A stretch of DNA of 64,000 nt from Symsagittifera roscoffensis (lineage: Eukaryota): NCBI RefSeq assembly GCF_963678635.1, contig NC_087064.1, positions 32,681,028 to 32,745,027 of the forward strand. The letters run 5' to 3'. The translations under genes and the position numbers were made by a program. Under the pieces are notes generated by a model, which worked only from the letters and a program-made list of their open reading frames with translations, did no database searches and was not told where the DNA came from. Positions 6,901-63,600 of this stretch are shown one piece after another; positions within the stretch are counted from its first letter, which is position 1, and every line of letters begins with the position of its first letter.

Positions 6901-7822
6901 GTAAGGCGTTGGTGTAATATATGGGAGAAAGTTTTTGATTTTGTTGGGAGGATCGCTATTCCTCTGTAGTTGTTTAGATCGGATTTGGTGCCTTTTTGTT
7001 GTACAACGGAGTTATATTTGCTTTTTTCCAGGATTTCGTTGATTTATGAATCTTGCATGTTTCTTTATCGAACCATGGTTTCGATATGCGTTTCTTTGGA
7101 GAATTTGCTCTTTTTATCGGAAGTTTGATCTACTGTGTGGTTAAATTGTCTTTTTTATTGAATTGATAATACTTTGTGTTCCAGAATCCAGTGCGGCGTG
7201 GTCGCATTTTGTTTTAGCATGCGAGACTTTTTTTCTCGATGGGTTACAGGCGTGGTTAATTTGAATGTTTGTGCTCAGTAAAATAGTTTTTTTATGATTT
7301 CTAGGTCTAGAGGGGTAATACTGAAGCACAGATTAATTGTGCTGTTACCTCGCATGCAGCTGCAAATAATTTTTTGTGGGTTGTTCATGTAATATATATC
7401 CTTTCGCTTCATTATCTCCAATAGCGCATGTGTTCTGGTAAATTGAATGTCCAGGTGATAGTTGGTCTCCGGCAAAAAGTATTTCGTTGACTACTGATGA
7501 GTGCTTGAGGGCTGTTGAAATTTCTCATAATATATCCTCTATTTCACTCTTGGTGGCATTATTGTTAGTTTAGTTGGGTCAAGGGATATGCTTATGATAC
7601 TCTTTTTTGTAGTTTATTAAGGCACGGTCCGCTAGACTTTGGCTTAATGCAATAGCGATTATCCCGATAGGGCGTCTTTTACACCATTTCTTGGCGGGTC
7701 AGTTTCTGCATATAAAGTTTGAAATCTCTAATTCTTGGAAGCTCATCGTTTCTGTTAGCAGAAGAATGTCATTTTCTTTAGTTCGTCTGTGAGTTTAGTA
7801 GCTAGTTTTGTTCCTTCGATGT

Positions 7823-8359
7823 TCAAAAAGAGGAGCGATAGGTTCTTGCGTTAGTCTTGTAGTCATGCTTGGTTTTTATATTTGTTGGAATGATTTTCCT
7901 TTTGCGGATGAAGTGATTCATTTCCGGTTTCTTATTTAGTTTTTCTTTTAGCGCAGTTCTCAGCTGAAATTTTTCTTGCTGTTGCTGTTTGTTAAGGTCT
8001 GGGTTGATGAAAAGCTTCCGATTTGCTCGTGTTCGCATTTTTCTGGTGTTTTTCAGGATTTTCAATTTGTGTTTTGTGGCTTTAAACGTGATTCGGATCA
8101 GTTTTTTGTTCTCTCTGCCACCGAAGGCTTTCATTGATTCATTTGGCTCCTCTTTGAAGTTTGTGTCTAAAGTCATGCAGATCTGGACGACATCGGATTT
8201 AGCCTGGTCACTAATTGAGATGCCCGAGATCACGATGTTCTTTTCACGTTCCCTCTTGCAATTTTTCTTCAAGATTGATACCTTTGAAAATATTTGAATA
8301 TAGCAGTTTGTTCGATTCTTCATTGCTGGGAATTCTTCGATACGCTGATTTGTTTTCAT
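7823..8359 (-). mobile_element. LINE ORF1-like (Transposase_22-type) fragment
   Basis: The 178-aa ORF includes LIRITFKATKHKLKILKNTRKM...RKLFINPDLNKQQQQEKFQLRTALKEKL, which resembles the conserved C-terminal domain of L1/CR1-family ORF1 proteins. It has the same orientation as the RT fragments downstream. Confidence 0.35.
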
Positions 8360-9815: not shown

Positions 9816-10774
9816 GTTGGTTAGATGACATCTTTTAGACCTTTGATGCGATAGTTTCATGTCGCATGTTTCATAGTTTCTTTTTTTTTTAAATGTGTAC
9901 TCGATAAAACTTAGCTGGAAAACATTATTTTTGTGTCTCTATCAAATTTTACCGAGCTTTTTATGGTAATGATAATCTTTACTTCCTCTTTGAAGGAGTT
10001 TTAGCTAAAAGGATTTACCCAAGGTTCCTGATTAGTAGTTCTAGGAAAAGTTTACCGGGTAGGATAGAATGTGCTTGGGTACTTTAGAATGGGTATTTGG
10101 CACTCATCACTTTAGAGTTATGTGGGTAATTTGGTATTATGTAGATTGGTATATTGTTGATTTCTATATAGGGTATAATGGTATAGGGTAGAAGGAGGGC
10201 TTAGAATAGATTGAAGCCGGGTAGACTGTCCTGCCGTCATAATTATGTAAGAATTATTAGAGATGGGCCCTGCACGCATTTTTGAAAATACCGGATACAG
10301 GACAATTACTTTTGCGAAGCGAGTGTATTAGTACGAACCTTCTTTTTTTCTAACCTAAGTCGCAAACATTGGTGCCAATTTTAAGGCACCTTTACTGCTT
10401 TTTGATAGCATGTGCTTTGACATTCAAATAATAATAAGTTAACACAGTTGATGCATTTTTAATTCATCAAATTAACCGAAAAAAAGTGATTTGTTTCAAA
10501 CAACATAACAGTAATGAAAACTCGATTTCAGAAATTTTTTAACTCAATATATCTCGCAATTTTTTTAAATACATAATTTGTACATAATGTGGCTTTGTGC
10601 TTTGCGATTTGTTACATGCAAAGTTAGTGTGGATGTCTTGAGCTTGTTATATTTCAAATTATTACTTGAAAATTGAGTCTGTTTGTATTTGGTGCCACTT
10701 TGCTGAATGGCATTGGCAATTTATTAGCATATGTAGCTGCTTTATTCGTGACTAGTATTTGTCGGTTGTTAAGC

Positions 10775-10975
10775 TTGCGTGGCTGAGTGGATAGTGCGTG
10801 AAACTCAAAATCTCTTGATTGCATTAGGGCGCAAATTCGAATCCTACACGTAGCCGAGCTTTTGCTAATTCGAGGCTTATTTCTTCTTTTTCTGATTTCA
10901 CACGATAGAGCTGCTTTTTGGTCGTTTTCTCGCAATCGTTTGTGAAGCGCAGCTTCGCTTCTGTGTAAAACTTAC
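10775..10975 (+). mobile_element. tRNA-derived SINE copy (tRNA-like head, body, conserved hairpin tail)
   Basis: Head GTGGCTGAGTGGATAGTGCG...GCAAATTCGAATCC has A-box and B-box-like motifs. The tail is ...TTGTGAAGCGCAGCTTCGCTTCTGTGTAAAAC. It shares body and tail with the copy at 59580-59765. Confidence 0.6.
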
Positions 10976-19688: not shown

Positions 19689-19744
19689 GTAAATGCACTT
19701 AAGAAAATCAGACTCCCTCCTCCACAGTTGTGCCTACGTATTTA

Positions 19745-22700
19745 ATAGATTTACTAGTAAAACTTTTGTTTTATTTGTCCGTTTGCAATAAAACTTGGAT
19801 TGTGGTTTAAGTAATTGAATCAAAACGTGTTTGGTTTCTCCTGCTTACGTATTATGTTATAGTATGAACTCTCTTTTTTTTCAACCTAAGTCGTAAATAT
19901 TGTTGCGACGCAAATATTTTTGCGACAAAAAGTGTTCATTTTGAAAGTGTTCATTTTGATCAATAACCGGCTATTAAGTACAGCCAATACTAAGGATTTT
20001 AACACAGACTATTCTATTACAAATAGCACTTAAGCTTCAAGCTATCGTGGATCTGTAGCGTAGAGGTAGGAAAGCAGGCCCGCAACAATATAAGAGGGTT
20101 CGAACCTGGGCAGGGTCTGATATTTTTAATGAAATTTTTCGCGCACTAGCTAAAATGCGTCCGCTGTATAAATTGAGGCATGTTAGCTGGTAAATTTCTC
20201 TTTTTTTTCAAATTGACTGGTACTTCTAATGCGTCATAATTGGCTAGCGTCACTTAGCAATTATGTAGTTTCATAATTGGCTTGCGAAATTTTGTAGACT
20301 CAAAGTTTTACTCATTAAGATTTTCCCAGTACCGTTATCGGTCATTTTTTTTCTTGGTGTGTGCGAAGTGCAACTTCGCCTCTGTGTAAAAAGTGTGAAA
20401 CAATTAATGACACAATGTGATCGATGCTTGCGAAAAATAGGGAAGAAAAGAGAACCAAAATTTCGATGAAGTTTTTTTTTTGTTTTATTTGTTCGTTTGC
20501 AATAAAACTTGGATTGTGGTTTAAGTAATTGAATCAAACGTGTTTTATTTCTCCTATTTACGTATTTTGTTAAATAGTGCTGAGTTAAATTAACCGGACA
20601 AAACGCGTTAAACTTGAAATTTAAAACCCGTTTTTCTCAAATTGGGTTGAGTTTAGGTGAAAACTTATGAAGACAAAACTTGCTTAAAATTTTAGCAGAA
20701 TTAATATGGTGTAATTTGTTTTGCGAATTTCAGGCCCAAAATTTTACCCCAAAAATGGGTTATGTTGGCTTTTCTTAGTTAATCAAAATTTACGCCAGAA
20801 ATACCCAGTCGATCACAGAAATAATTATATCAAAGTGAGCCCATTACGTAGCCCAACAAACTTTATGAAGGGTGTTTTCTCCAAAATATTGTATAAGTTA
20901 ATTTATTTTTGTTTGATAGACAATTTTTAAACAATTTGCAATTTTTTTTGGAGAATATACCCTTCATAAAGTTTATTGGACTACGTAATGGGCTCACTTT
21001 GATATAATTATTTCTGTGATCGACTGGGTATTTTTGGCGTAAGTTTTGATTAACTAAGAAAAGCCAACATAACCCATTTTTGGGGTAAAATTTTGGGCCT
21101 GAAATTCGCAAAACAAATTACACCATATTAATTCTGCTAAAATTTTAAGCAAGTTTTGTCTTCATAAGTTTTCACCTAAACTCAACCCAATTTGAGAAAA
21201 ACGGGTTTTAAATTTCAAGTTTAACGCGTTTTGTCCGGTTAATTTAAATCAGCACTGTAGTATGAATTGTATTTTGGTGTAATATGAACTCTCTTTTTCC
21301 AACCTAAGTCGCAAATATTAGTGCTCTTTTTGAAAGTGCTCTTTTATTGCAGTATATGCATAAGATTAATAACCAGCGATCAAGTACAGCCAATGCTAAG
21401 GATTTTAACACAGACGATTATATTACAAATAGCCCTTAAGCTTCAAGGTATCATGGATCTGTAGCGTAGAGGTAGGAAAAGAGACACGCAACAAAAGAGA
21501 GGGTTCGAACCGGGGCATGGTCGGATGTTTTTAATGAAATTTTTCGCGTACTAGCTAAAATGCGTCCGCTCTATAAATTGAGGCATGTTAGCTGGTAAAT
21601 TTCTCTTTTTTTTTTCAAATTGACTGGTACTTCTAGTGTGTCATAACTGGCTTGCGTCACTTTGCTATGATGTAAGTCTCATAATTGGCATGCGAAATTT
21701 TGTAGACTCAAAGTTTTACTCATTAAGATTTTCCCAGTATCGTTCTCGGTCATTTTTTTAGTAATTGAATCAAACGTGTTTAAGTAATTGAATCAAACGT
21801 ATTTTATTTCTCCTGTTTACGTGTTTTGTTATAGTATGAAACGTATTTTGGTATAGTATGAACTCTCTTTTTTTCAAACTAAGTGGCAAATATTGTTGCG
21901 ACGCAAATATTGTTGCGACAAAAAGTTTTCGTTTTGAAAGTTTTCTTTTTGATCATTAACCAGCAATTAAGTACAGCCAATTCTAAGGATTTTAACACGG
22001 ACTATTATTTTACAAGTGGCACTTAATCTTCAAGGTATCTTGGATCTGTAGCGTAGAGGTAGGGAAGCAGACCCGCAACAAAGTAAGAGGGTTCGAACCT
22101 GGGCAGGGTCGGAGGTTTTTAATGAACTTTTTCGTGTACTAGCTTAAAGGCGTCCGCTCTATAAATTGAGGCATGTTAGCTGGTAAATTTCTTTTTTTTT
22201 CAAATTGACTGGTACTTCTAGTGTTTCATAACTTGCTTGCGTCACTTTGCTATGATGTAGTCTCATAATTGGCATGCGAAATTTTGTAGACTCAAAGTTT
22301 TACTCATTAAGATTTTCCCAGTAGCGTTATCGGTCATTTTTATCTTGGTGTGTGCGAAGTGCAACTTCGCCTGTGTAAAAGTTGTGAAACAATTAATGAC
22401 ACAATGTAATCGATGCTTGCGAAAAATAGGGAAGAGAAGAGAACCCAAATTTCGATGAAGTTTTGTTTTGTTTTATTTGTCCTTTGCTATAAAGCTTGGA
22501 TTGTGGTTTAAGTAATTGAATCAAAACTTATTTTATTTCTCCTGTTTACGTGTTTTTTTATAGTATGAAACGTATTTTGGTATAGTATGAACTCTCTTTT
22601 TTTCGAACTAAGTCGCAAATATTGTTGCGACGCAATTATTGTATCGAAAAAAAGTTTTCATTTTGAAAGTTTTCTTTTTGATCATTAACCAGCAATTAAG

Positions 22701-25700
22701 TACAGCCAATGCTAAGGATTTTAACACGGACTATTATATTACAAGTGGCACTTAAGCTTCGAGGTATCATGGATCTGTAGCGGAGAGGTAGGGAAGCAGA
22801 CCCGCAACAAAGTAAGAGGGTTCGAACCTGGGCAGGGTCGGAGGTTTTTAATGAACTTTTTCGTGTACTAGCTTAAAGGCGTCCGCTCTATAAATTGAGG
22901 CATGTTAGCTGGTAAATTTCTTTTTTTTTCAAATTGACTGGTACTTCTAGTGTGTCAATACTGGCTTGCGTCACTTTGCAATGATGTAGTCTCATAATTG
23001 GAATGCGAAATTTTGTAGACCCAAAATTTTACTCATTAAGATTTTCCCAGTATCGTTTTCGGTCATTTTTTTTAGTAATTGAATCAAACGTGTTTAAGTA
23101 ATTGAATCAAACGTGTTTTATTTCTCCTATTTACGTATTTTGTTATAGTATGAATTGTATTTTGGTATAGTATGAACTCTCTTTTTTCAACCTAAGTCGC
23201 AAATATTAGTGCTCTTTTTGAAAGTGCTCTTTTATTGCAGTATATGCATAAGATTAATAACCAGCGATCAAGTACAGCCAATGCTAAGGATTTTAACACA
23301 GACGATTATATTACAAATAGCCCTTAAGCTTCAAGGTATCATGAATCTGTAGCGTAGAGGTAGGAAAAGAGACACGCAACAAAAGAGAGGGTTTGAACCG
23401 GGGCATGGTCGGATGTTTTTAATGAAATTTTTCGCGTACTAGCTAAAATGCGTCCGCTCTATAAATTGAGGCATGTTAGCTGGTAAATTTCTTTTTTTTT
23501 CAAATTGACTGGTACTTCTAGTGTGTCATAACTGGCTTGCGTCACTTTGCTATGATGTAAGTCTAATAATTGGCATGCGAAATTTTGTAGACTCAAAGTT
23601 TTACTCATTAAGATTTTCCCAGTATCGTTCTCGGTCATTTTTTTTAGTAATTGAATCAAACGTGTTTAAGTAATTGAATCAAACGTATTTTATTTCTCCT
23701 GTTTACGTGTTTTGTTATAGTATGGAACGTATTTTGGTATAGTATGAACTCTCTTTTTTTCAAACTAAGTGGCAAATATTGTTGCGACGCAAATATTGTT
23801 GCGACAAAAAGTTTTCATTTTGAAAGTTTTCTTTTTGATCATTAACCAGCAATTAAGTACAGCCAATTCTAAGGATTTTAACACGGACTATTATTTTACA
23901 AGTGGCACTTAAGCTTCAAGGTATCTTGGATCTGTAGCGTAGAGGTAGAGAAGCAGACCCGCAACAAAGTAAGAGGGTTCGAACCTGGGCAGGGTCGGAG
24001 GTTTTTAATGAACTTTTTCGTGTACTAGCTTAAAGGCGTCCGCTCTATAAATTGAGGCATGTTAGCTGGTAAATTTCTTTTTTTTTCAAATTGACTGGTA
24101 CTTCTAGTGTTTCATAACTTGCTTGCGTCACTTTGCTATGATGTAGTCTCATAATTGGCATGCGAAATTTTGTAGACTCAAAGTTTTACTCATTAAGATT
24201 TTCCCAGTAGCGTTATCGGTCATTTTTATCTTGGTGTGTGCGAAGTGCAACTTCGCCTGTGTTAAAGTTGTGAAACAATTAATGACACAATGTAATCGAT
24301 GCTTGCGAAAAATAGGGAAGAGAAGAGAACCAAAATTTCGAAGAAACTTTGTTTTGTTTTATTTGTCCTTTGCTATAAAGCTTGGATTGTGGTTCAAGTA
24401 ATTGAATCAAAACTTATTTTATTTCTCCTGTTTACGTGTTTTTTTATAGTATGAAACGTGTTTTGGTATAGTATGAACTCTCTTTTTTTCGAACTAAGTC
24501 GCAAATATTGTTGCGACGCAAATATTGTATCGAAAAAAAGTTTTCATTTTGAAAGTTTTCTTTTTGATCATTAACCAGCAATTAAGTACAGCCAATACTA
24601 AGGATTTTAACACGGACTATTATATTACAATAGGCACTTAAGCTTCGAGGTATCATGGATCTGTAGCGGAGTGGTAGGGAAGCAGACCCGCAACAAAGTA
24701 AAAGGGTTCGAACCTGGGCAGGGTCGGAGGTTTTTAATGAACTTTTTCGTGTACTAGCTTAAAGGCGTCCGCTCTATAAATTGAGGCATGTTAGCTGGTA
24801 AATTTCTTTTTTTTTTCAAATTGACTGGTACTTCTAGTGTGTCAATACTGGCTTGCGTCACTTTGCAATGATGTAGTCTCATAATTGGAATGCGAAATTT
24901 TGTGGACCCAAAATTTTACTCATTAAGATTTTACCAGTATCGTTCTCGGTCATTTTTTTTAGTAATTGAATCAAACGTGTTTAAGTAATTGAATCAAACG
25001 TGTTTTATTTCTCCTATTTACGTATTTTGCTATAGTATGAATTGTATTTTGGTATAGTATGAACTCTCTTTTTTCAACCTAAGTCGCAAATATTAGTGCT
25101 CTTTTTGAAAGTGCTCTTTTATTGCAGTATATGCATAAGATTAATAACCAGCGATCAAGTACAGCCAATGCTAAGGATTTTAACACAGACGATTATATTA
25201 CAAATAGCCCTTAAGCTTCAAGGTATCATGGATCTGTAGCGTAGAGGTAGGAAAAGAGACACGCAACAATAGAGGGTTCGAACCGGGGCATGGTCGGATG
25301 TTTTTAATGAAATTTTTCGCGTACTAGCTAAAATGCGTCCGCTCTATAAATTGAGGCATGTTAGCTGGTAAATTTCTCTTTTTTTTTTCAAATTGACTGG
25401 TACTTCTAGTGTGTCATAACTGGCTTGCGTCACTTTGCTATGATGTAGTCTCATAATTGGCATGCGAAATTTTGTAGACTCAAAGTTTTACTCATTAAGA
25501 TTTTCCCAGTATCGTTCTCGGTCATTTTTTTAGTAATTGAATCAAACGTGTTTAAGTAATTGAATCAAACGTATTTTATTTCTCCTGTTTACGTGTTTTG
25601 TTATAGTATGAAACGTATTTTGGTATAGTATGAACTCTCTTTTTTTCAAACTAAGTGGCAAATATTGTTGCGACGCAAATATTGTTGCGACAAAAAGTTT

Positions 25701-27690
25701 TCATTTTGAAAGTTTTCTTTTTGATCAATAACCAGCTATTAAGTACAGCCAATGCCAAGGATTCTAACACGGACTATTATATTACAATTAGCACTTAAGC
25801 TTCAAGGTATCATGGATCTGTAGCGTAGAGGTAGGGAAGCAGGCCCGCAACAAAATAAGAGGGTTCGAATCTGGGCAGGGTCTGATGTTTTTATTGAAAT
25901 TTTTCGCGTACTAGCTAAAATGCGTCCGCTGTATAAATTGAGGCATGTTAGCTGGTAAATTTCTTTTTTTTTCAATTTGACTGGTACTTCTAGTGTTTCA
26001 TAACTTGCTCGCGTCACTTTGCTATGATGTAGTCTCATAATTGGCATGCGAAATTTTGTAGACTCAAAGTTTTACTCATTAAGATTTTCCCAGTAGCGTT
26101 ATCGGTCATTTTTTTCTTGGTGTGTGCGAAATGCAACGTCGCCTCTGTGTAAAAGTTGTGAAACAATTAATGACACAATGTAATCGATGCTTGCGAAAAA
26201 TAAAGAAGAGAAGAGAACCAAAATTTCGATGAAGTTTTTTTGTTTTATTTGTCCGTTTGCAATAAAGCTTGGCTTGTGGTTTAAGTAATTGAATCAAAAC
26301 GTGTTTTATTTCTCCTGTTTACGTATTTTGTTATAGTATGAAACGTATTTTGGTATACTATGAACTCTTTTTTTTGCAACCTTAGTCGCAAATACTGTTG
26401 CGACGCAACTATTTCTGAGACAAAAATTGCTCATTTTGGAAGTGTTCATTTTGATCAAAAACCAGCTATTAAGTACAGCCAATGCTAAAGTTTTTAACAC
26501 AGACGATTATATTGAAAATAGCCCTTAAGCTTCAAGCTATCGTGGATCTGTAGCGTAGAGGTAGGGAAGCAGGCCCGCAACAAAATAAGAGGGTTCGAAC
26601 CTGGGCAGGGTCTGATGTTTTTATTGAAATTTTTCGCGTACTAGCTAAAATGCGTCCGCTGTATAAATTGAGGCATGTTAGCTGGTAAATTTCTCTTTTT
26701 TTTCAAATTGACTGGTACTTCTAATGCGTCATAATTGGCTTGCGTCACTTAGCAATTATGTAGTTTCATAATTGGCGTATGAAATTTTGTAGACTCAAAG
26801 TTTTACTCATTAAGATTTTCCCAGTAGCGTTATCGGTCATTTTTTTCTTGGTGTGTGCGAAGTGCAACTTCGCCTCTGTGTAAAAGTTGTGAAACAATTA
26901 ATGACACAATGTAATCGATGCTTGCGAAAAATAGGGAAGGGAAGAGAACCAAATTTTCGATGAAGTTTTTTTTTGTTTTATTTGTCCGTTTGCTATAAAG
27001 CTTGGATTGTGGTTTAAGTAATTGAATCAAAACGTGTTTTATTTCTCCTGTTTACGTGTTTTGTTATAGTATGAAACGTATTTTGGTATAGTATGAAGTC
27101 TCTTTTTTTCAACCTAAGTTGCAAATATTGTTGCGACGCAAATATTGTTGCGACAAAAAGTTTTCATTTGGAAACTTTTCATTTTGATCATCAACCAGCA
27201 ATTAAGTACAGCCAATGCTAAGGATTTTAACACCGTCTATTATTTACAAATAGCACTTAAGCTTCAAAGTATCATGGATCTGTTGCGTAGAGGTAGGGAA
27301 GGAGACCCGCAACAAAATAAGAGGGTTTGAACCTGGGCAGGGTCGGATGTTTTAAATGAACTTTTTCGTGTACTAGCTTAATTGCGTTCGCTCTATAAAT
27401 TGAGGCATGTTAGCTAGTAAATTTGTTTTTTTTTCTAAACAAAAAGCAAATTAAATTCATTATTGCTAAAGCGTCATAATTGGCTTGCGAATTTTTTAGT
27501 CTCGAAGTTTTACTCATTAAGATTTTCCCAGTAGCGTTATCGGTCATTTTTTTCTTGGTGTATGCGAAGTGCAACTTCGCCTCTGTGTAAAAATTGTGAA
27601 ACATTTAATGACACAATGTAATCGATGCTTGCGAAAAGTAGGGAAGGGAAGAGAACGAAAATTTCGAAAGTTTTTTTATAGGAAGAAAAT
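19745..27690. repeat. SINE-derived tandem satellite with higher-order repeat structure, filling intron 6 of the PARP4-like gene
   Basis: The anchor CGTCCGCTCTATAAATTGAGGCATGTTAGCTGGTAAATTTC recurs at ~20160, 21570, 22160, 22880, 23450, 24040, 24770, 25340, 25925, 26650 and 27390. Monomers are ~570/590/725 bp. Variant-specific strings (e.g. GAAAAGAGACACGCAACAAAAGAGAGGGTTCGAACCGGGGCATGGTCGGATG at 21300, 23190 and 25080) define a ~1.89-kb higher-order unit repeated 3 times. Monomers carry A-box/B-box-like motifs (GTAGCGTAGAGG ... GGGTTCGAACC) and the SINE hairpin tail GCGAAGTGCAACTTCGCCTCTGTGTAAAA. Confidence 0.85.
20575..21257. mobile_element. Foldback MITE (~340-bp inverted arms) inserted into one satellite monomer
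   Basis: ORFs 20721..20930(+) and 20863..21111(-) encode the same peptide, so the two arms are near-identical inverted repeats. The element is centred at ~20915. Terminal sequence is AGTGCTGAGTTAAATTAACCGGACAAAACGCG. Other monomers lack this block. A related copy lies at 58485-58830. Confidence 0.8.
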
Positions 27691-27841
27691 TTTTTAATAG
27701 GAAGTTTTGTTCTCCTGAGTTACAATGCAATGGAATGAGATCTTAGGCGTTCATCAAAGTGTAAACTCAAATTTTAACTTTCTTTGGTAAATTTTTGGCT
27801 CTTTCAACAGTCCAAGTTACTATCTATGAAATATGTTTTAG

Positions 27842-28293
27842 GGGACTCATACTTCCTAATGTTGCGACCAATGAGTTTGGGATACCTTTGACAGACTTCG
27901 GCAAGCTGGGTCGAGGCATCTACTTCTCAGAACAGATGAATACGAGTTTAAAGTACTGCTCCCCAGCTCAACATGGGCTCAGATACCTTCTCATGTGTGA
28001 AGTGGTTGTCGGAAAGCAGTTCGAGACCTCGGATCTGATGCCCGAAAGAACCACAGCTCCAGAAGGGTTCGATTCTGTTGTTGCGAACCCTGATTCGCAT
28101 AACTTCAATGGAGATTCTGAGGTAGTGGTGTATAATACGAACCAAGTCAGATTGAAGTATCTGATTGAGTTGAAGGTCGAAGGCGATAATCAGAAGAATG
28201 GTTGGGAGTTCAATTCTCAGCTCTTGTTACCTGGTTTTGGTGGTGATGAGGTCGATCTAGCCAGCAGGGGAAAAGAGAACGACTTGAGCTTCG
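27842..28293 (+). CDS. PARP4: PARP4-like exon 7, C-terminal part of PARP catalytic domain (Tyr and catalytic Glu)
   Basis: Acceptor TGTTTTAG. The phase-2 entry gives LSR|GLILPNVATNEFGIPLTDFGKLGRGIYFSEQMNTSLKYC...YLLMCEVVVGK...APEGFDSVVA...DSEVVVYNTNQVRLKYLIELK. This is near-collinear with human PARP4 GSGIYFSDSLSTSIKYS...LLLICDVALGK...PPGYDSVHG...DEFVVYKTNQVKMKYIIKF. Donor TCG|GTGAGA is phase 1. Confidence 0.9.
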
Positions 28294-28429: not shown

Positions 28430-28750
28430 GTTGGAAGACTACCCTTAAGGATTCGACCCTCGTGCCGACTCAAAAGGTCTACCTTGTTCTATTTTCGGCG
28501 CCAATAATTACTAATTTTGAGCGGGAAGCGCGCGCCGAAAAATGCAATTTTTTGGTCTAAATTTTGCAAAAAAAGCCCAACAGCGCCTTTTATGGCCTGT
28601 TTTTTTTCAAAATTTTGCCTGCATCGCAGAAAATCCGGTCAAATCAGCCCGGGAAATCAATTATTGAACCTAAAAACAACCAAAAAAAGTTCAGCAAAGT
28701 TTTTAAAAATCCGCCCCCCCCCCCCCTCGAGAAAATCCTAGATCCTCCCT
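28430..28750. repeat. Dispersed repeat (second copy at ~63560-63740) with adjacent poly-C tract
   Basis: ...TTTTGAGCGGGAAGCGCGCGCCGAAAAATGC...TTTTGCCTGCATCGCAGAAAAT... is matched at 63620-63720. C14 tract at 28711-28726. Confidence 0.6.
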
Positions 28751-29479: not shown

Positions 29480-32400
29480 TGTTGCTATGATGTTTAAGGA
29501 GTTTAACTAATCTAATCTGGCTTGGCTTCTTTCGTATTTTGCCCCCTTGGCGACACTTTCTCCGGCAGTTATTCTGACCAGTTCGTTCTCCGATAGACTT
29601 TGTTTTTTCTCAGGAATTGGATAATTTGTGAATGGTAGGGTGGGAGCTCTCGATCCCCATCTGGAAGGCCCTATGTCATCCCTCGACCGAATTGTTGGTT
29701 TGTTGTCTTTTATTTTTGGCGTTTTAGAATTTTTTGAACTGATTCCCCAGTGAGATAGGGAATTGCCCAACCCCCCTGCGTCATCGGAGGATGGTTTCAA
29801 CCCAAGTGGATTCAAAATAATTGACGTAATCCTGTAAGGTGGACTCATCACTTTTGTCGGAAATTTCAGAACATAAAGCAGCCATCCTGATTTCAAATTC
29901 GAGCTCAGGTATTGGTGACTGAGCACCAAATGACTTTAGAAGCTTGAGCTTTTTTATCTTTTCGATAAACCGGTGCTAATCCGATCTCTTCAATTTTGCG
30001 CCAAATGACCGAAGCAAACTAAAAAAAGCAGCTGTTTGTAGTAACTCCATTGAATACCTTCAGAAAGGCGGTAATGGAAGCCTTCTCAAAATCTACCGCA
30101 ATCTATCAGGGCTCAAGTCCTGGATTGGTTCATTTCAGTTGTTTGAAGGCCCGGATGTATTGCTCTTCACTTTTGTTATGAAAATGAAAGAAGACTAATG
30201 GAAAAGTTTGATAGTTAACCACTGCATGAATTGTAACAATTTGATAAATAACGCGGGCCAGCTGTAAATGTCCCATTTGCGTACCAGGCTGTTGTTTTCT
30301 AAATTTTTAAGTTCTATTCGGTGGCAAATGTTACCATTCGGTCTTTGTCATCCGACACCGAATCGAAAAGGAGAAAATTATCCCTCTCAGGGTTTTGCAT
30401 AACTTAAAGGCACAGCAATGTCTTTTATTGAGTATGGGGGCAGAATCAGTTGCTGGGGCAGAATTAGTTGCTCGTTGCCGTTGAACAGTACGGTCGAGTG
30501 ACCTGTACTTAGGTAAGTTAACCACTGTTTCGAGGCTAATATCCCCAACGTTTTCCACATAAATGATTATGGGAGGCTTTAATGTTATGTTTCTTTCTGT
30601 TTTATAGAACGTTGAACCCAGTAAATTTACAGCTTTATAACCAGACAAGAGAAAATTTCAATCCCTCTAAAAATCCTCCCGGTTTTTTAAAGTTAGCCTG
30701 TTCGAGAAGTTTTGTTTTTGTTACGCTGGGTTTGGCCAGTCCCCCCCCCCCACAAAAACGCACGCCTTGCATTCATGCTAATTCAACTTTTTGAAACAAA
30801 ATAAAATAAGAAAAGTCGTAATTTTGAAAGCTTAAGGTCGTGCACGTGTGAAAATTTTTCTCGATTTTTTTTTTGAAATTTTCTACTTCCTCGCAAGGAA
30901 TATTTTTAGGGCCATGTTCTCCGGATATGCTGACTATTTCGTCTGCGATGGTGGCAACAAGCTTTATACAGTCTATTCACGCATCGCCAGCTGGATTTAT
31001 CAGTTTTTTCTTTTCGCAGTTTAGGTTGAAGGTTTCTCCATCGTGAACAAATTGCTGTTTTTCTCGCTCGCTCATATCAAAATTTAAAGGCATGTTTTTA
31101 TCAGTAAGTGTAATGCTACTAACGTTCAATTACTCTTATCTTTACTGATAATTCATTTAAGGTATTTAATTCAACACTGGTGCTAAATTGTAATTTTTGA
31201 TCGCTCGCTAGTTTTTAATCCCCCACAACCAGCGCAAAATTGCTTTCTTGTTTCGCATCGTTTAGTAACCAGCCCAATTAACAATTAATAGTGCTGCCAA
31301 TTTTTGCTTGCTACGAATTGACGCTTGGCGCTAATTGTCGCCTTCTAAAAATGCTGCGAATAGTCGCTGCTGAACAATGGTCGCTTGCGTTGAATTCTCG
31401 CCTCGCGGTCAGTATTATTTGATATCAGTTTGGTATAGGTGACATTTGTTGATATTTTGTTCTTCCATTTTTGGCGTTTTCGAACTGTTTTCAGAATGAG
31501 ATAGGGAATTGCCCAACCCCCTGCATCCTCGGAGGAAGGTTGCAACCCAAGTTGTTTCGAAATATTTGACGTAATCCAGTAAGGGAGACTCATCACTGTT
31601 TTCGGAAATTTCAGAGTATAAAGCAGCCATGCCGATTTCAAAATCGAGCCTAGGTATTGATGCCAGAGCAAAAAATGATTTTAGAAGCTTGCGCGTTTGT
31701 TTATATCGCTAAACCGGTGCTAGTTCAATCTCCTGAATGTTTCGGCAATTGGCCTGAGCAAAATGAAAGAAGCAGCCTTTTCTAGTTACTCCACTGAATA
31801 CCCTCAGAAAGGAACTAATTGAAGCCTTCTCAAAATCTAGCACAATGTATGAGGGCTCAAGTCCTGAATTGTTTTCTTCCAGTTTTTTGCTTACCCGGAT
31901 GTTTTGCTGTTCGCTTTTGTTTTTAAGAAAAAAGAAAACTAATGGAAAAGTTTGATCAATAACCACTGCATGAATTGTAGAAGTTTGATAAAATAACGCA
32001 GGACATGCTTTGAATACTATTGTTTCGATGCTAATATCTCCAGTGTCTTCCACGTAAATGATCCTGGGAGGCTCGAATGTTATGTTTTATTTCCGCCTGA
32101 TGGCACGTTTAACACTGTAAATTTACAAATTTCTTACAGCACAAGAAAAAATTTCTGATACCTCTAGAACTACCCCCGGTCTTTAAAAAATTAACCTGTT
32201 CTAGGGGGTTAGTTTAGTTTGGAAAGTTTAAGTTGGCCTAAGTTTAAGTTTAGGTTGCATAGAATATTTTCGTGGCCGTATTCTACGGATATGCTGACTA
32301 TTTCATCTGCGATTGTGACATTAGAAGCTTTACACGATCTCATCTCGCATCGCCAGCTGGATTGACCACTTATTTTGTTTTGACGGTTCATTTTGAAGAT

Positions 32401-34330
32401 TTCTCCATCGTGCCCAATGTGTTCTTTTCCGCTCTCGCTCATGACAAAATTTGAAGACATTTTGGTATGAGTAATTGTAATGATATTGAAGAAGAAATTG
32501 AAATGATCGAATTGAAACAAAGAAGTTTTGGATGCTACTAACGGTCAATTACTCTTATCTTTACTGTTATTTTTTTTTCAATTTGGTATCTCTTTCAACA
32601 CTGAAGCTAAACTGAAAGTTTTGATTGCTCGCTGGATTTAAATCCCCCACAACCGCAAAATGTGTTTGCTTAATTCGCATCTTCTAGTTATGCGCCTAAT
32701 TAGCTATTAATCTAAATTATCTAAATTAGGAATTGTCATCTCACAATCAGTAACATGTGATGTCAGTTTGGTATAGCTCACAAATTATGAGGAAGCTAAA
32801 AAACTGAAGTTTGCACGTTTAACCCGGTTTTTTTTAAAAGTTAGCCTGTTGAAGGGGTTGTCTTTTTGATCCGCTGGGTGTGGCCAGTTTTCCCTGAGAG
32901 AAACTCACGAATTGCAGTCATTGTGGTTTAACGCATTAAAACAAAATGAGATGAGAAAAAACCTAATTTTGAAAGTTTAAGTTGGCCCAAGTTTAAGTCG
33001 CATGGAATATTTTCGTTGCCATATTCTACGGATATGCTGACTATTTCATCTGCGATTGTGGCAACAGAAGTTTTACATGGTCTCTTCTCGCATCGTCAGC
33101 TGGATTAACCACTTATTTTGTTTTGACGGTTCATTTTAAAGGTTTCTCCATCGTGCCCAATGTGTTCTTTTCCGCTCTCGCTCATGACAAAATATAAAGA
33201 CATATTGGTATGAGTAATTGTAATGACTTTGAAGATGAAATTGAAATGATTAAATTGAAACAAAGATATTTTGGACGCTACTAACGGTCAATTACTCCTA
33301 TCTCTACTGTTATTTTTTTTTCAATTTGGTATCTCTTTCAACACTGGTGCTAAATTGTAAGTTTTGATTGCTCGCTGGATTTCAATCCCCCACAACCGCA
33401 ATTTTTTTTGCTTAATTCGCATCCTTTAGTAATCCGCTCAATTAGCTCTTAATCGTATTGCTAGTGGTCCTTTGCTACAAATTGACACTTAGTGCGGATT
33501 GCCGCCTTTTAAAAATGCTGCGAATAGTCGCTTTTGACCAAACGTCGCTTGCGACGAATTGTCGCCTCACGATTAGTAACATGTGATATCAGTTGGGTAT
33601 AGCTCACAATTTATCAGGAAGCTAAAAAACTGAAATTTGCACGTTTAACCCTGTAACTTTACAGCTTTATAACAGGACAAGAAAAAATTTTTGATCCCCC
33701 AAAAAATAACCCCGGTTTTCAAAAGTTAGCCTGTTGAAGGAGTTGTCTTTTTGATCTTCTGGGTGTGGCCAGTTTTCGCCCACAAAAACTCACGCGTTGC
33801 AGTCATACTGGTTTAACGGATTAAAACAAAATGAAATGAGAAAAAACCTAATTTTGAAAGTTTAAGTTGGCCCAAGTTTAAGTCGCATGGAATATTTTCG
33901 TTGCCATATTCTACGGATATGCTGACTATTTCATCTGCGATTGTGGCAACAGAAGCTTTACACGGTCTCTTCTCGCATCGCCAGCTGGATTTACCACTTT
34001 TTTTGTTTTGACGGTTCATTTTGAAGGTTTCTCCATCGTGCCCAATGTGTTCTTTTCCGCTCTCGCTCATGAAAAAATTTAAAGACATATTGGTATCAGT
34101 AATTGTAATGATTTTTTGGGTTCTAATCCCCCATAAACGCAAATTTTTTTGCCTTATTCGCATCGTTTAGTAATCCGCCCAATTAGCTATTAATCGTGCT
34201 GCTAGTTGTCCCTTGCTTCAAATTGACACTTAGTGCGGATTGCCGCCTTTTAAAAATGCTGCGAATAGTCGCTTTTGACCAATCGACGCTTGTGACGAAT
34301 TGTCGCCTCACGATGAGTAACATATGATAT
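29480..34330 (-). mobile_element. Tandem cluster of about 4 degenerate FLYWCH-zinc-finger/MULE (Mutator-like) transposon copies in the VIT intron
   Basis: The MULE DDE-region signature YIVLDFEKASISSFLRVFSGVTRKGCFFHFAQANCRNIQ is in ORF 31709..32053(-), with a degraded homolog at 30331..30648(-). FLYWCH-type fingers (F.MSESGKEHIGHDGE.FKMNRQNK.SG.SSWRCE.R.CKAS) lie at ~30890-31080, 32209..32520, ~33000-33190 and 33813..34163. The C-terminal ORFs 29507..29929 and 31345..31671 are homologous. Units are ~1.0-1.6 kb. Confidence 0.6.
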
Positions 34331-36871: not shown

Positions 36872-37839
36872 GTTTCATATTTATCGCGGTTTTGATTAAA
36901 CAAAACATGCTCAGAAAATTCTAGCAGAAGTCGAGAGCTATTTTATTTAGAAAATTTAATAAATCTAATGGGAGAAAATGGATAGTTACTTTTGAACTGT
37001 CGTTTGCTGTTTCGATTTATTACACAAGCAAAGCTTATGTGATAGTATGATTTCTCTTCTTTTCCGACCTAAGTCGCAAATATTGTGCTCTATAAATTGA
37101 GGAATGTTAGTTGGTAAATTTCTTTTTTTTTCAAATTGACTGGTACTGATAATGCGTCATAATAGGCTTGAGTCACTTAGCAACTATGTAGACTCATATT
37201 TGGCGTGCGAAATCATCATTCAGTTTTAATCATTCAGTTTTCCTTAGTAGCGTTATCGTTCATATTTTGCTTGTGTATGCGAAAAGCAACTTCGCCTCTG
37301 TGTTTAGTTTTTTTTTGTTTTTTATGCGAAATCAGGCAGCTTAAACATTCGTTGGAATAGATCAAGTGATATATCATATTGAAGCCGTTTCCGTTATGAT
37401 TCGAACATTTAAAATTTCCCAATGTCGAGAAAAATTGGTTCGAATTTTTTGATTTTTATTATAAGTACTAGGAGTATACAAGCGAGCGAGGTCTTATGAT
37501 AGGTTTTTAATTTTATATTTTTTGTTATTTGAGTAAGAACATGAAAGTTAAGTTCAACTGCAGTAAAATTGTTAATTTTTTCATTGAGATTTCTATAATT
37601 TGAGTGACATTCTATTGCTGAACTATGAACTGGCACACCATGATTTCACATCTTGTAATTTTATCTTTTGATATTTTTATACGTAGTAAAGATACTAACT
37701 TTTTGAGCAACGACCAAGACCAGTTGCCAGCTTAATAAATAATAAATTTAACTTGTGAATTGGCGTTTCGAACAGAAAAAGTTCGAAACTATTAGCTTTG
37801 TTACAATTTGTTTCCTTTGTTTGAGGAAAACTGATGTCA

Positions 37840-57282: not shown

Positions 57283-58289
57283 GTTAGTGAAATTCATCAA
57301 TTTGATCGATGATTGTTAAATTAAAATAGCATTCAAGTTGGTAGCAAGTAAAAGTTGGGTATTTTGCTTAGGCGTTACCTGTTCCCTTTATATTACCTGG
57401 CCTCGCTTTGAAGCTAACCCTCTGTTCAGACAAATCAAATAAATCACCGCCATAAATAATTTGAATTGTTTATGGTAAGAAAGCGCTTTTTAAGCAAAAA
57501 TAATAACGCCCAAAATAATTCGCACAACCAAAAAATGACCCAAATCTTCCAACAATCGATTTTTTGCAAAAATTTCATTATTTGTATACAAAAAAAAACC
57601 AAAGAGAACGGTGAAAAAAATTGTAGAAAATATGGGTTCTTATGGTCTCTTCTGTTGATCGATTTATTTATCAGCCATATGAGTGTTTTGTTATTGTCTG
57701 CCTGTCGAGTTTGTGCTTCTTACAACCTCCGCTGTCGAATCTGTGCGACTTTCATGAATTTGGTCGACCTTGGTATATGTTTAAACAAGCCGAGCATAAT
57801 ATCATTAGGAACTCCAATTTTTTGCAACCCAAGTCGAATGAAAATGCTCATTTATTTTGTGCTTCATGAGCATTATATCTTTTTGTTGGCGTGTGTTTGA
57901 TGCTTATTGAGAGGCCATGGCATTGATGCTAGTACGTGAAATTCTCAATATCGAGGTCAGGAGTTCATAACATATCAGTGTGCTTAAAATTATTACCTTT
58001 TCTTTTGTTCTTTCATTTTTTAACTTCTTTTAGGACTGTTTTTTTTGCCGTTTTCTCGCTTGTTTGGCAGGAGCAGCTTCGCCTCTGTGTTATAACATAA
58101 AATGTATAAAAAACAAGGTCGACAAGATTTTTGAAATGTGTGCAGGGTCGACAGCGGACCTTGTTCGAATCACCAGATATTGTTTGACTAATACGGCTGA
58201 TACATAAGTCACTACCTCAAGCTGGGTGGCGTAGAAAATAAATTCTATTCTAATCTCAGTCTATCGCCGTTAAATCATAGCTCTTTTAG

Positions 58290-58429: not shown

Positions 58430-58484
58430 TTTTGAACGTCGTGTCAATGATCTCGGTTGAATTTAACTTGCGCCGTAACTATAC

Positions 58485-58830: not shown

Positions 58831-59579
58831 TTATTCATGGTGCAAGCAGATTGCATGGCTTACTATTCAATTTTAGTGATTGTTAATCAGGAGGTATGTG
58901 GTACATAGCCCGTGGTTTGACTTTTTCTTTCAAGGCCTATTTGATCTTTTCAAGGCCAAATTCTAGGCCCATTTTTGTATTTGTTTTAGAGTTTTTTTTT
59001 GCATTTAAAGAGCTCTTTTTTGTCGCTTGTGCTTGCGATGTGGGTTTTGCAAAAAGCTTGAAAGTTTACGGCAAAACTACATGTCAATTACTGACAAAAT
59101 TATGTCAAAGTTTTTATTAAAAAATAATTTTGCGCAATACCTTGGAGAGTAATTGGATTGTCAGTTTTGGCTTGGTACTTGACTACAATAATTGACTCGG
59201 TAGTTTTGTAATAATTTTTGTTTGAGAAAAAAGCCAACAGTGAGCCGTTTTTGGGTAGAATTTTTGTTAACTAAAGTGCAGCGTTTTAAAGTGCCCCAGT
59301 TTTGTTTACTAAATTGCACCGTATTAAGTCTGCTAATTTTCCAAGCAAAATTTTTCCCATCATTTTTCCGTTAAAGTTAACCCAAATTGAGAAAAAGAGC
59401 GTTTTTACGCTGGCGAGCAGCTTGTGTTTTAGTATGAAATTTCCTTTTTTTCTAATTCAACTCGCTAATAAAAATGTTCACTTGTGTGCCTTTTGCTATA
59501 ATCACGATTTGTTGCATTGGAAACTTCATAGCATCTCTTCTCGACTTTGTTTGTGGCTAGTATTTGTGATGGACTGAGC

Positions 59580-59765
59580 GTCCTTGACTGAGTGGCTAGT
59601 GCGTGAGTTTCATAATTTGTAGCTCGTAGGTTCCAATCCGAGACGTTGCCGAATTTTACTAATTTGAGGCTTAATTTTACTTTCTCTTCTAGAGCGGCTT
59701 TTTGTCGTGTTCTCGCTAGTGTTTGCGAAGCGCAGTTTCGCCTGTTTAAATTTCAATTTCTGAGC
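59580..59765 (+). mobile_element. tRNA-derived SINE copy (same family as 10775-10975)
   Basis: Head ..GAGTGGCTAGTGCGTGAG...GTAGGTTCCAATCC. Body ...CTAATTTGAGGCTTAATTTTAC... Tail TTGCGAAGCGCAGTTTCGCCTGTTTAAA. Confidence 0.6.
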
Positions 59766-60615: not shown

Positions 60616-63600
60616 ATAGTTAACGTTTCCGAAGAAATGCGGCAAATTGTCTTCTTTTCAAATAATTAGCCTGATTTGAAAAAGTTTTCGAAAATGATTT
60701 TTTCTTTAGATTTTTCATTACATTTGCTTTTAATGAATTTTACGTTTTCCAGGTTTCTTCGCATTTGGCCTCGAGGTAACGCCGTTGGTTTTGCACCCTA
60801 CGGTCCGGGGTTTGAACTCCGGCCGGACTTTTTTTTTTTTTTAGTATTTATGTCCTTGATTTTCAAGACTTTCGTTCATTTGCTCAAATTTGTCGGCTTA
60901 GTTGGCACATTACAGATTTTTCTTGTGCTGTAAGCAAGTATCCTTGTGGTTGCAAATGTTGTAAATTTTTGTGTCTGGTGGGACTTTGAACTTCTTACAG
61001 ATTTTCTAAATCATTCTTTTTTCGGATCAACTTGTGTCTGCTCAAAGAATATCGGCTTTGTTTCCGCATCGTAAGTTTGGGTCCGTTGCTTTTTTAAAGT
61101 TTTGGTCCTGCTTGACATGTTTTCCTAGTTTGATAAAAACAGGTATTATGAAACTTATGGGATTGGGTTTTTCTATTACCCTTGCAATCAGGTACAAGAC
61201 TTTTTTCTCGTAAAAAACTTCGATGAAAGAATGGTCAAAATTAAAAATGGTACATTTAGGTTCAGTTTATTTTGAATTCATTTTTTTGCGGATCCGGTAC
61301 ACTTGGCCTGGAGGTAACGAGTACGCCTGAGACGGCAATGCTCCTGGGTGCGAAACTGGCATGGCCTGTTTTTTCTTTTCAAACGGGAAGTATTCCATTT
61401 CAAAACAGATTGTCGGCTTATTATGCTTATTAATTGTCTGCTTTTATTTTGTCAGCTTATTTGCAACATTGTATATGTTTTTTTGCTGCACTCAATTTAC
61501 CTTTTGGTTGCTGTCAGTGTTTTGATTTACTTCTGCTGTTTGTAATCTTTAACTTTGTATATTTTTCTTTCATGTTTTTTTTTCGCTTAAAAACTTTTTT
61601 CTGCCAAATGATTTCGGCTTAAATTTTATCGGCTTAGTGACATAATTTTTAGTACTTTTAAGGTAAACATAATGTTCATGTTCACTGGATCGCACAAATT
61701 GCTGAAATCTTTATAGAAAAAATAGCTCACGTTTTTCATGGCAACATTTTTTCGGCTTTTTTTCTAATTTTTTTTGGCTTGATAGGTTTCGGCTTATATT
61801 ATATCGGCTTAGTGGCCTCATATTGTTTCATTTGACGAGCCAACAAAGTTTTTTTGTGTGTGTATTTTGAGGGTGAAAAGGCATTGTTAATTTTATATTA
61901 GTCTTAATTCTTGTTTGGTTTTTTTTGAGGAAAAGTCTTAAAAGTCTCTAATAACTACAGATGTGCATTCATACATATTGATGCATTTATGAATGCACTT
62001 AGGTTTATATGTACTTTTTGAGTTCAATTGAAATTCATCTGCAGAGAGTGACGTAAATAGCACTCTCCAAATACAAATGTGGAAATGGCGCGACAAAAGG
62101 GAACGATTTTTAGTTTCGAAAGTGGATATTATTTTTTAGGTTTCCAGTGTAAAAAAATTTTTACCTATTGATCCACTTTTCTCATGTGGGGTTCATGTTA
62201 TAAAAAAAGCGCCAATTATAAATTGCTCTAGGAATTCAAAGAGCCTTAAAGGCATCTATTTTTTCTTTGAAATCTGAAAGTTGAGATTTTTTTAACAAAG
62301 TCAGTGTTTTTCTAAGTTTAGTTGCTTTCATTACTCTTTTCCAATATTCGATTGGCTATGTTTTCAAAACTAGCTTGATTAATTTTGATTGATATAGTTT
62401 TTTTCGACATATTCAAATTTTTTAAAAATTGTTTTCTGACTAAACGACTTTTTGGTTTTGTATCGCGCAAGTGGTGCGAATCGCAGCTTCGCCTTTGTGT
62501 TCTTTTTTGCGATCTTATTCTGGCTATGTTTGGATTTTGCAGCGAAATAGAAAAAAGTAACCTTTGAATCCAGTTTTCTTAAACGTTTTTAGTTTTCGTG
62601 AAATTCAAAGGCCATATATTTTTTTCTGTAAAAACTAATTGGTAACATTTTTTTAGAAAAACAATTTTTTTTATTTTTTCAGTTTTCTTGCTTTCATTGA
62701 CACCGCTTCTTTCAGCTCATTTAGCTATCTGTTGCTTTTGTTTGATGCATTCAACCTTTGTGTAATCAAAGTATTTGAATGGTTTAAAAATTTGCTCTTC
62801 GGTTTGAGTTTTGAAAAATTTGCAGAATCGGAACATTTTCACGGTAGACAATTAGTTCTACAGTGCTCCACTTTGCGCTATTAAGAGTTATGAACATAGT
62901 GAGTTTTCTTATATAAATCTTGCTGATTTTTTTGTTTTTTTTAGGATAAAGTCTTGAAATTTGTTCACGCTCAGTTTTGATTTTTCGCGGTTTGACTTGT
63001 GATTTCTTTTAATGTTCAGTGCATTTCCATTGTTGAAAGGAAGGCAAACTCCCCTATCGAAGAACAAAAGCGAAAAGGTCACGAAAGACGTGATCGACTT
63101 CTGATTTCGAAAAATGGAAAGTAATTATTTGGTTTCTCAGCGCAATAAAAGTTTTGCGTATTGATACAGTTTTGCTCAAATTGGGTTAGTTTCAACAAAA
63201 AAGTGTCCATCTTAAATTGTTTTAAGGCCATCTTTTTTTTCTTTGAAATGCAAAAGTTGAAGGCTCTTGAAAAAACAAGTCAGTTTTTTTTTGAGTTTCC
63301 TTGCTTTCAATACTCTTTTCCAACTGTTAGTTGGCTATGTTATTTTTAATTTTACGCGCTATTGTGTTCTGTTAATGCATAGGAAGCAAAATTACCCGCT
63401 CTCAAAATGTTATCAGATCGAGTTGAAGGGAGCAGGGTCTTCAACTGGTCTCTATTATAGTGACCAGTCACTTTTCATCTCTAAAAGCTCTACTTTTTTA
63501 CTGGTCAATATTTTTATTTATAGTCTAGAATACATCAAAACTCCTGAGGTCCCCCTTTGAACTATTTTGAGATATCCTTTTTTTGGCTGACGGACCCAAA

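Follow-up and report, generated by a model that had tools for sequence, protein, structure and literature searches.

Introduction

Several described systems bear on the repeat array analysed here, which fills an intron of a PARP gene in a stretch of 64,000 nucleotides of the Symsagittifera roscoffensis genome (contig NC_087064.1, positions 32,681,028 to 32,745,027; this whole stretch is called the window, and positions are counted from its first letter). Satellite 1 of Xenopus laevis is a tandem repeat of ~740 bp with an internal RNA polymerase III (Pol III) promoter, and its transcription in oocytes has been shown experimentally. Satellites derived from short interspersed elements (SINEs) are known from squamates, in the form of the sSats, and from Patella, where PcH-sat derives from the Nin-SINE (PMC10702118, PMC11121367). 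Composite monomers derived from transposable elements (TEs) and arrays in euchromatin have been documented as well (PMC12692304). Furthermore, Helentrons are known to carry satellite-like repeats whose expansion takes place in euchromatin and also within genes, and tandem series of whole Helitrons can occur in which the inner copies are 3'-truncated (PMC7492417). Non-autonomous Helentrons (HINEs) are recognised by subterminal inverted repeats (subTIRs), a short palindrome just 3' of the 3' repeat, T-rich flanks and the lack of an A-tail (PMC4067079, PMC7492417).

Here, we describe the anatomy of the S. roscoffensis array, its allelic forms, its host gene and its dispersed relatives. We put the probability at about three in four that the array is a TE-seeded intronic macrosatellite, founded by a small non-autonomous element and differing in length between alleles, with no demonstrated function.

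Results

A three-monomer higher-order repeat fills the intron

An original prediction made from the letters of the window had described an intron almost entirely filled by ~11 monomers of three length classes, arranged in a ~1.89-kb higher-order repeat (HOR) present three times, with variant blocks recurring at 21300, 23190 and 25080. We delimited the monomers by anchor motifs and MAFFT alignment and used k-mer offsets, BLAST and nhmmer in place of Tandem Repeats Finder (TRF), and the description held in each of these respects (Table 1). The array and a foldback element inserted in it make up 97% of the intron, and the foldback insertion is the sole break in monomer contiguity. Self-offsets of 14-mers gave a main peak at 1886 bp (1314 pairs) and secondary peaks at 729, 1157 (= 572 + 585), 572/584 and 3772 bp. 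The successive monomers measure 723 (foldback removed), 584, 729, 572, 585, 730, 572, 584, 731 and 707 bp; three length classes of 572, 584 and 729 bp thus build an A-B-C HOR of 1886 bp in about 2.9 copies. BLAST with one such unit returned 21300-23185 (the reference), 23188-25072 (98.5% identity) and 25075-26846 (94.0%). Monomers of the same type are 96-99% identical across HOR copies, and monomers of different types 84-93%. The array is a genuine three-monomer HOR with diverged edge monomers.

The array starts at about column 135 of the monomer profile and ends at column 134, with a T-run at both places, and because start and end coincide within the monomer it comprises a whole number of units. 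The junction between units reads as the 3' array edge joined to the 5' edge across the T-run. TRF, with its period limit of 500, was blind to the array for that reason and reported only internal duplications of 15-23 bp that recur at the HOR period.

The array differs in length between alleles

Using the exon peptides, we reached four contigs (109-840 kb) of two ENA assemblies, ERZ25878734 and ERZ25071366. In ERZ25878734, contig ctg22781l (locus L002) has an intron of 8153 bp that is base-for-base equal to the window and represents the same allele, and contig ctg21079l (loci L004 and L001) has an intron of 26229 bp, as calculated from record coordinates, with an array of 26004 bp; the sample behind ERZ25878734 looks to be an 8-kb/26-kb heterozygote. 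In ERZ25071366, the intron is 9082 bp on contig ctg22271l (L003), with the foldback at the same site, and a predicted ~10064 bp on contig ctg21409l (L005), where the acceptor lies 50 nt past the locus and the array is one A-B-C unit longer. Array length is therefore polymorphic.

The 5' and 3' array edges and the splice sites are common to all alleles. The ~10-kb allele corresponds to that of the window with exactly one A-B-C unit added, and the 26-kb allele is longer by further A-B-C units and by B-C dimers. When 66 monomers were typed, types A, B, C, m0, m9 and m10 were found in every allele, varying in number and order. The unique flanks are 96.7-99.7% identical among alleles and form two haplogroups ~3% apart, one holding the window/L002 allele and the ~10-kb allele (99.7%) and the other the 9082-bp and 26-kb alleles (98.9%); the monomer types are common to both. 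From these differences in whole blocks we infer unequal crossing-over, of which they are the signature.

Two differences were also seen beyond the array. L001 lacks a 123-bp stretch (28528-28649) of the intron that follows the catalytic exon, which constitutes an indel polymorphism, and the window and L002 begin to differ at 28727.

A foldback element interrupts one monomer

The element that interrupts monomer m1 is a foldback that resembles MITEs, the miniature inverted-repeat transposable elements; it is not satellite sequence and had been overlooked in the original prediction. Three of the four alleles carry it: it is identical in L002 and the ~10-kb allele and 99.6% identical in the 9082-bp allele, and the parts of the 26-kb allele that were sequenced lack it. 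Since it is present in both haplogroups and lacking from the sequenced 26-kb parts, it probably predates the haplogroup split and was later lost from the 26-kb allele by array turnover. The foldback belongs to a dispersed family, because a single arm (58483-58764, 80% identical) and a terminal fragment (59745-59787) recur near 58.5-59.8 kb. At this single site, the interrupted m1 sequence is restored without target duplication.

The host gene and its intron

Pfam matched PARP catalytic, VIT and vWA (VWA_3) domains on the + strand and, weakly, the PARP regulatory domain. A 792-aa concatenation of the exons gave 227 matches, among which the top-scoring named ones were PARP4 or PARP4-like at 42-45% identity, from Saccoglossus, Littorina, Lottia, Branchiostoma, Mytilus and Porites (hemichordate, molluscs, amphioxus and cnidarians). 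Judged by these matches, the host gene is the PARP4 (vault PARP) orthologue. The His-Tyr-Glu (H-Y-E) triad is intact, with H in LYHGT, Y in GIYFSEQ and E in SEVVVY, and the 127-aa open reading frame (ORF) of the upstream exon is identical on 4/4 ENA contigs.

The PARP catalytic domain is split between ...LYHGTSPANLIGVLSR and GLILPNVAT...GIYFSEQ with boundaries exactly as the original prediction had placed them. The donor is AG/GTAAAT at 19689 and the acceptor TTTTAG/G with its last base at 27841, and together they interrupt the Arg codon of ...LSR/GLILP. The split is ancestral gene structure and no peculiarity, because Lottia has an intron at the identical codon and phase. At the Lottia gigantea junction, which follows ...GLLSR (ctttctAG/gtattt ... 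ttatag/A GGA TTG), the intron measures ~380 bp, and the Trichoplax gene model begins precisely at the GLLLPK exon. By this comparison, the position and phase of the intron are ancestral in PARP4. The word essential in the prediction was not justified, given that it is PARP4 and that PARP4-null mice are viable.

Table 1. Positions of the intron, the array, the foldback and the dispersed relatives in the window.
Feature	Position	Strand	Remarks
Upstream reading segment	19309..19688	+	Ends at donor; encodes ...KEVQTLYHGTSPANLIGVLS(R); His of H-Y-E triad; Pfam PARP 7e-22; 5' limit is that of the open reading segment, not a mapped upstream acceptor
Intron	19689..27841	+	GT..AG, phase 2, 8153 bp
Tandem array	19764..27677	+	11 monomers and a 134-nt terminal partial; single orientation, head to tail
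Monomer m0	19764..20338	+	Diverged edge type, 82-89% to other monomers; kept in all alleles
Monomer m1	20339..21746	+	Long form, C-type body; split by foldback
Foldback (MITE-like) element	20573..21258	.	686 bp; 311-nt arms 98% complementary, 59-nt loop; inside m1
HOR copy 1	21747..23631	+	A 21747-22330 (584 bp), B 22331-23059 (729 bp), C 23060-23631 (572 bp)
HOR copy 2	23632..25518	+	A 23632-24216, B 24217-24946, C 24947-25518; 98.5% to copy 1
Third, degenerate unit	25519..27540	+	A-like 25519-26102, then long edge-type m9 26103-26833 and m10 26834-27540
Terminal partial monomer	27541..27677	+	Has hairpin module; T-run at end
A-box-like TAGCGTAGAGG and B-box-like GGTTCGAACCT pair (example)	22049..22100	+	N30 between; 41 nt start to start; other pair starts 20056, 21462, 22778, 23350, 23935, 24664, 25237, 25821, 26551
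3' hairpin (example)	22354..22371	+	GCGAAGT-GCA-ACTTCGC (GCGAAGTGCAACTTCGC); others 20363, 24240, 26126, 26857, 27564
Downstream exon	27842..28293	+	(R)GLILPNVATNEFGIPLTDFGKLGRGIYFSEQ...SEVVVYNTNQVRLKYLIEL...; Tyr and Glu of triad; 3' end inferred from G/GTGAGA
c37	37018..37303	+	Closest monomer relative; 5' block, body, hairpin; perfect 12-nt subTIR pair 37021-37032 / 37266-37277
c10	10305..10969	+	5' block, ~330 bp unrelated AT-rich, head with perfect A box TGGCTGAGTGG and B-like box, 3' hairpin
c57	57781..58090	+	Between imperfect 60-nt inverted repeats 57713-57772 / 58114-58173
c59	59404..59750	+	5' block, A- and B-like boxes, 3' hairpin; foldback-terminus fragment behind
c62	62434..62500	+	Recognisable: 3' module with hairpin only

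The dispersed relatives resemble non-autonomous Helentrons

The hairpin sequence of the monomers led to five dispersed relatives in the window, c10, c37, c57, c59 and c62. The modules shared by the family are a 5' block, TAGTATGAA..CTTTTTTTC..CTAAGTCGCAAATATTG, and a 3' module that ends in the hairpin and CTCTGTGT. The closest relative of the monomer, c37, is collinear with it except for a ~250-bp piece (columns 300-552, which has the A- and B-box-like motifs considered below) and a ~170-bp spacer (columns 49-220). Profile searches with the shared 5' and 3' modules found no copies beyond the five, 26 kb of two unrelated contigs reached via a gag ORF held none, and FLYWCH and reverse transcriptase (RT)-like ORFs used as probes for further genomic loci returned the same locus only. 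A single match of a conserved 21-mer in a JGI metagenome was rejected as chance, with nothing shared beyond the 21-mer.

The 12 nt at the 5' end of c37, TACACAAGCAAA (37021-37032), are a perfect complement of the 12 nt abutting its 3' hairpin, a pairing found in 0/3000 shuffles (p < 3e-4). The corresponding subTIR matches at 11/12 with one gap in c57 (p = 0.007) and at 9/11 in c59 (p = 0.06), and is not significant in c10. The arms lie at homologous positions and show compensatory changes, GCAAA/TTTGC in c37 versus GCGAG/CTCGC in c59 and c57. No subTIR pair was found in the satellite monomers, from which the 5' arm is missing. In addition, a T3-4 run stands directly 5' of c37, c59, c57 and c10, and the 3' flank begins with T in three of the five copies. 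A stem of 5-7 bp directly abuts the 3' arm, and similarity between copies stops 8-9 nt beyond it; the copies finish in the hairpin and CTCTGTGT, with no A-rich or simple-repeat tail.

By this architecture the dispersed family would stand closer to HINEs than to SINEs, a resemblance that stops short of proven membership. A Rep/helicase gene was not visible in the 64-kb window. A canonical Helitron was considered and rejected, the copies having neither a 5' TC nor a 3' CTRR terminus.

Further observations concern individual copies. The five dispersed copies and the array all lie on the + strand, the sense strand of PARP4; 5/5 hints at a bias in orientation, without reaching significance (two-sided p about 0.06). 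The inverted repeats round c57 are 73% complementary, with a further 24-nt pair outside them, so that c57 either lies inside another inverted-repeat element or bears long terminal inverted repeats of its own. Each monomer has two-copy micro-duplications of 15-23 bp (19929-27154; TTTAAGTAATTGAATCAAACGTG, ACGTATTTTGGTATAGTATGAA, GCAAATATTGTTGCGAC and AAAGTTTTCATTTTG, each twice), and c37 has ATCATTCAGTTTT twice; a tendency to local duplication runs throughout the family.

Box motifs, hairpin and the case for a SINE

The original prediction had reported Pol III A/B-box-like motifs and a SINE 3' hairpin in the monomers, which it called SINE-derived. Both kinds of motif exist and are non-random. 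An A/B-like pair occurs in 9-10 monomers, and 0/400 Markov-simulated 56-kb sequences gave such a pair; the hairpin has a 7-bp stem (-6.7 kcal/mol, z = -4.1). The hairpin is confined to the long monomers (6 sites), and the LINE-like ORFs (LINE, long interspersed element) at 4.5-8.4 kb do not carry it.

On that view, the monomers might descend from a tRNA-derived SINE that kept a working Pol III promoter and a 3' hairpin recognised by a LINE, with Pol III transcripts possible from within the intron. The A and B boxes follow each other in canonical order and at canonical spacing (38-41 nt between their starts), c10 and c59 also have A/B-like boxes, the A box of c10 is perfect (a pair like that of c10 arose in 1.5% of simulations), a conserved 3' stem-loop is what SINEs mobilised by stringent LINEs typically have, c10 is flanked by a direct repeat of 10 nt, and SINE-derived satellites have precedent. 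No tRNA was recognised, however. Three targeted Rfam scans (E<=10) found no tRNA in the HOR unit, c59 or c10; run at its gathering threshold and at E<=10, Rfam matched neither a tRNA nor a SINE nor another credible RNA family in the monomer or the dispersed copies, with weak chance snoRNA-like matches only; ARAGORN found no tRNA; and a cloverleaf fold was absent from all tested segments (z -0.7 to +0.7, the monomer box segment having z = -0.7).

The placement of the boxes also argues against a SINE. They lie ~200 nt inside the element and not at its 5' end. c10 and c59 remain homologous for >60 nt upstream of their A box, and from the boxes it is 150-460 nt back to the 5' block, so that a Pol III transcript starting from them would not carry the whole mobile unit. 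Within the monomer the boxes sit in the ~250-bp piece missing from c37, which is without any A/B-box motif, and in the monomer the counterpart of the c10/c59 head (GCTTGCGTCACTTAGCAATTATGTAGTTTCATAATT) has decayed and lacks a B box. The B-like motif, GGTTCGAACCT, is palindromic. A T5 run follows 17 nt past the B box, and 19 runs of T>=4 occur per consensus monomer on that strand. An A-rich or simple-repeat tail is lacking, and co-varying 5'/3' inverted repeats are foreign to SINEs. Taken together, these features suggest that the monomer is probably not SINE-derived, and we regard descent from a SINE with a working promoter as unlikely. The Pol III transcripts that had been proposed fare no better: any product would be only ~75 nt, and the boxes, at the 21st-27th percentile of variability across the 66 monomers, show no unusual conservation compared with the rest of the monomer.

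Origin and growth of the array

A TE-seeded macrosatellite could have arisen as follows, and the order of events is one that we infer. The starting state would be a PARP4 orthologue with an ancient phase-2 intron of ~0.4 kb; the non-repeat parts of the intron (75 + 164 nt) and the spacer (~170 nt) add up to ~0.4 kb, and the Lottia intron has ~380 bp. A ~550-bp copy of the dispersed family would then have inserted, made of the 5' block, the body and the 3' hairpin plus the ~250 bp that bear the A and B boxes. Misalignment between two T-runs may next have duplicated a 729-bp segment consisting of the element and ~170 bp of adjacent intron, which would account for the array having both its edges at one T-run position of the monomer. 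Deletions of ~145-160 bp would have removed the hairpin module and given rise to the 572-bp and 584-bp forms, and the resulting 1886-bp A-B-C trimer would have been amplified and reshuffled by unequal crossing-over into the alleles of 8.15, 9.08, ~10.06 and 26.2 kb, the foldback entering one monomer along the way. Because they have lost the 5' inverted repeat of the dispersed copies, the monomers appear to be immobile derivatives, and therefore the array would grow by recombination and not by transposition.

The array could instead have been laid down by a rolling-circle Helentron replicase that read through its termination signal and left the inner copies 3'-truncated. Such a process would fit a family that is HINE-like in its subTIRs, 3' palindrome and 5' T-run, and unit boundaries at T-runs, the Helentron target type; tandem whole Helitrons with 3'-truncated inner copies are documented, and what is absent from the A and C monomers is exactly the 3' hairpin module. 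However, a spacer of ~170 bp (or ~60 bp) separates the monomers, has no counterpart in the dispersed copies and leaves no 3'-to-5' joins. The 5' subTIR is missing from the monomers, no replicase gene (Rep/helicase) is visible in the window, and the alleles differ by whole A-B-C or B-C blocks, as unequal exchange predicts. We therefore consider rolling-circle deposition improbable, and less likely than a SINE ancestry.

Other repeats in the window

A repeated block of ~1.3-1.5 kb in a downstream PARP4 intron contains MULE-transposase and FLYWCH zinc-finger ORFs (31700-34200; minus-strand 31709-32053, 32209-32520 and 33813-34163). Since L001 (14200-19250) appears to have more copies of this block than the window, it would be a second copy-number-variable tandem region in PARP4. 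Between 44000 and 48000, GC skew is strongly negative and AT skew positive. The ORF at 46313-47182 encodes a Gln/Asn-rich product of 289 aa with a retrotransposon gag domain and recurs in identical form on two further contigs (L008 and L009) of the same assembly, for which reason the region is probably a young long terminal repeat (LTR) retrotransposon. Minus-strand ORFs of 100-200 aa at 4525-8359 and 48600-54300 (e.g. 6191-6799, 7823-8359 and 53047-53661) gave no Pfam match and have the look of transposon genes in decay; the product of 53047-53661 might be a candidate packaging ATPase of the Polinton/Maverick kind.

Discussion

The array appears to be neutral, and no feature of it suggests a function. 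On all alleles the exons and splice sites are intact, and the host gene would read through the array. Given these intact exons and splice sites, together with an upstream-exon ORF that is identical on 4/4 contigs, a three-fold range in intron length would be tolerated. One could imagine a role in which the ~10 to ~40 phased Pol III type-2 promoter-like modules per allele (A box, B box and T5 ~75 nt on) would be bound by TFIIIC or transcribed to tRNA-sized RNAs, acting like extra-TFIIIC (ETC) sites or insulators or by interference, with the length series tuning PARP4 (vault) expression. We hold this to be more improbable still than rolling-circle deposition.

Least probable of all, to the point of being negligible, is that the array came about by an error of assembly (collapse, expansion or chimerism of a repeat), as the original prediction had allowed: near-identical 1.9-kb tandem units are error-prone in assembly, and one ENA contig matches the window allele in full and may share reads with it, but four different alleles on four long contigs from two assemblies share edges, monomer types, splice sites and flanks and differ by whole-monomer blocks.

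Several points nevertheless weigh against a TE-seeded macrosatellite grown by unequal exchange. On the side of the alleles, the window and L002 are not independent, because they are base-for-base identical; of ctg21079l, the 19.7 kb on the two sides of a central 6.3 kb were read, all of it array; and the acceptor of the ~10-kb allele lies just outside the locus read, which leaves that intron length a prediction. On the side of the seed element, the termini and copy number of the family rest on ~100 kb of genome covered. The difference between c37 and the monomer could be a 250-bp gain in the monomer or a loss in c37. The direct repeat ATACCGGATA of 10 nt at 10288 and 10999, ~20-30 nt outside the ends of c10, would suit an element that makes target site duplications (TSDs) better than a Helentron. 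Finally, the boxes hint at a captured tRNA-related piece, and given the non-random A/B pair some tRNA- or SINE-related ancestry is possible for part of the monomer.

TE-seeded tandem arrays, euchromatic HORs and length-polymorphic intronic macrosatellites have all been documented, and this locus adds little that is new in kind. It offers a clean, fully resolved example of satellite birth, in which a ~0.4-kb intron as in Lottia, founder edges at T-runs, deletion variants, an HOR, a nested foldback and four alleles of 8-26 kb can be read together. What sets it apart is a repeat unit made of the element and its flank, and not of an internal repeat, and a series from birth to polymorphism at one locus. 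The alleles also form a natural series in which the effect of intron length and repeat load on PARP4 splicing and expression could be followed. As a caution, A/B-box motifs alone do not suffice to call a SINE.

Among known systems, the satellites linked to HINEs (Cg_HINE of Crassostrea gigas, DINE-1/DINE-TR1 of Drosophila, and Pearl) tie tandem repeats to a non-autonomous element with a subTIR, a 3' palindrome and T-rich surroundings, an architecture that the dispersed copies here would share. In HINEs, however, central tandem repeats of 140-180 bp lie within the element, whereas the unit here is the whole element plus intron flank (729 bp). HINEs have subTIRs of 12-15 bp, the 5' one within a few nt of the terminus, and the monomers here are without a 5' subTIR; the distance from the 3' subTIR to the presumed end is ~28 nt here versus 38-60 nt in mite HINEs. 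The sSats and PcH-sat share with the S. roscoffensis array a small dispersed element as the source of the repeat, modest copy numbers and variable orthologous loci. Their parent SINEs are known by strong homology, whereas no SINE parent was identified here, and PcH-sat is without A and B boxes, whereas the array here has boxes that are internal, without tRNA structure and followed by terminators. Xenopus satellite 1 has a ~0.7-kb unit with an A/B-type promoter, and this array has a unit of like size with A/B-box-like motifs, which are recognised from sequence and in which a T5 run comes right after the B box. As in HOR satellites and in human-type intronic macrosatellites and variable number tandem repeats (VNTRs), the units are more homogeneous between than within, the edges are diverged, the centre is homogenised and allelic copy number would vary through unequal exchange. 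Unlike the megabase heterochromatic arrays, the array here occupies a single known locus, is intronic and measures 8-26 kb, and unlike HOR satellites and human-type VNTRs it is built of a long monomer (572-729 bp) that is TE-derived.

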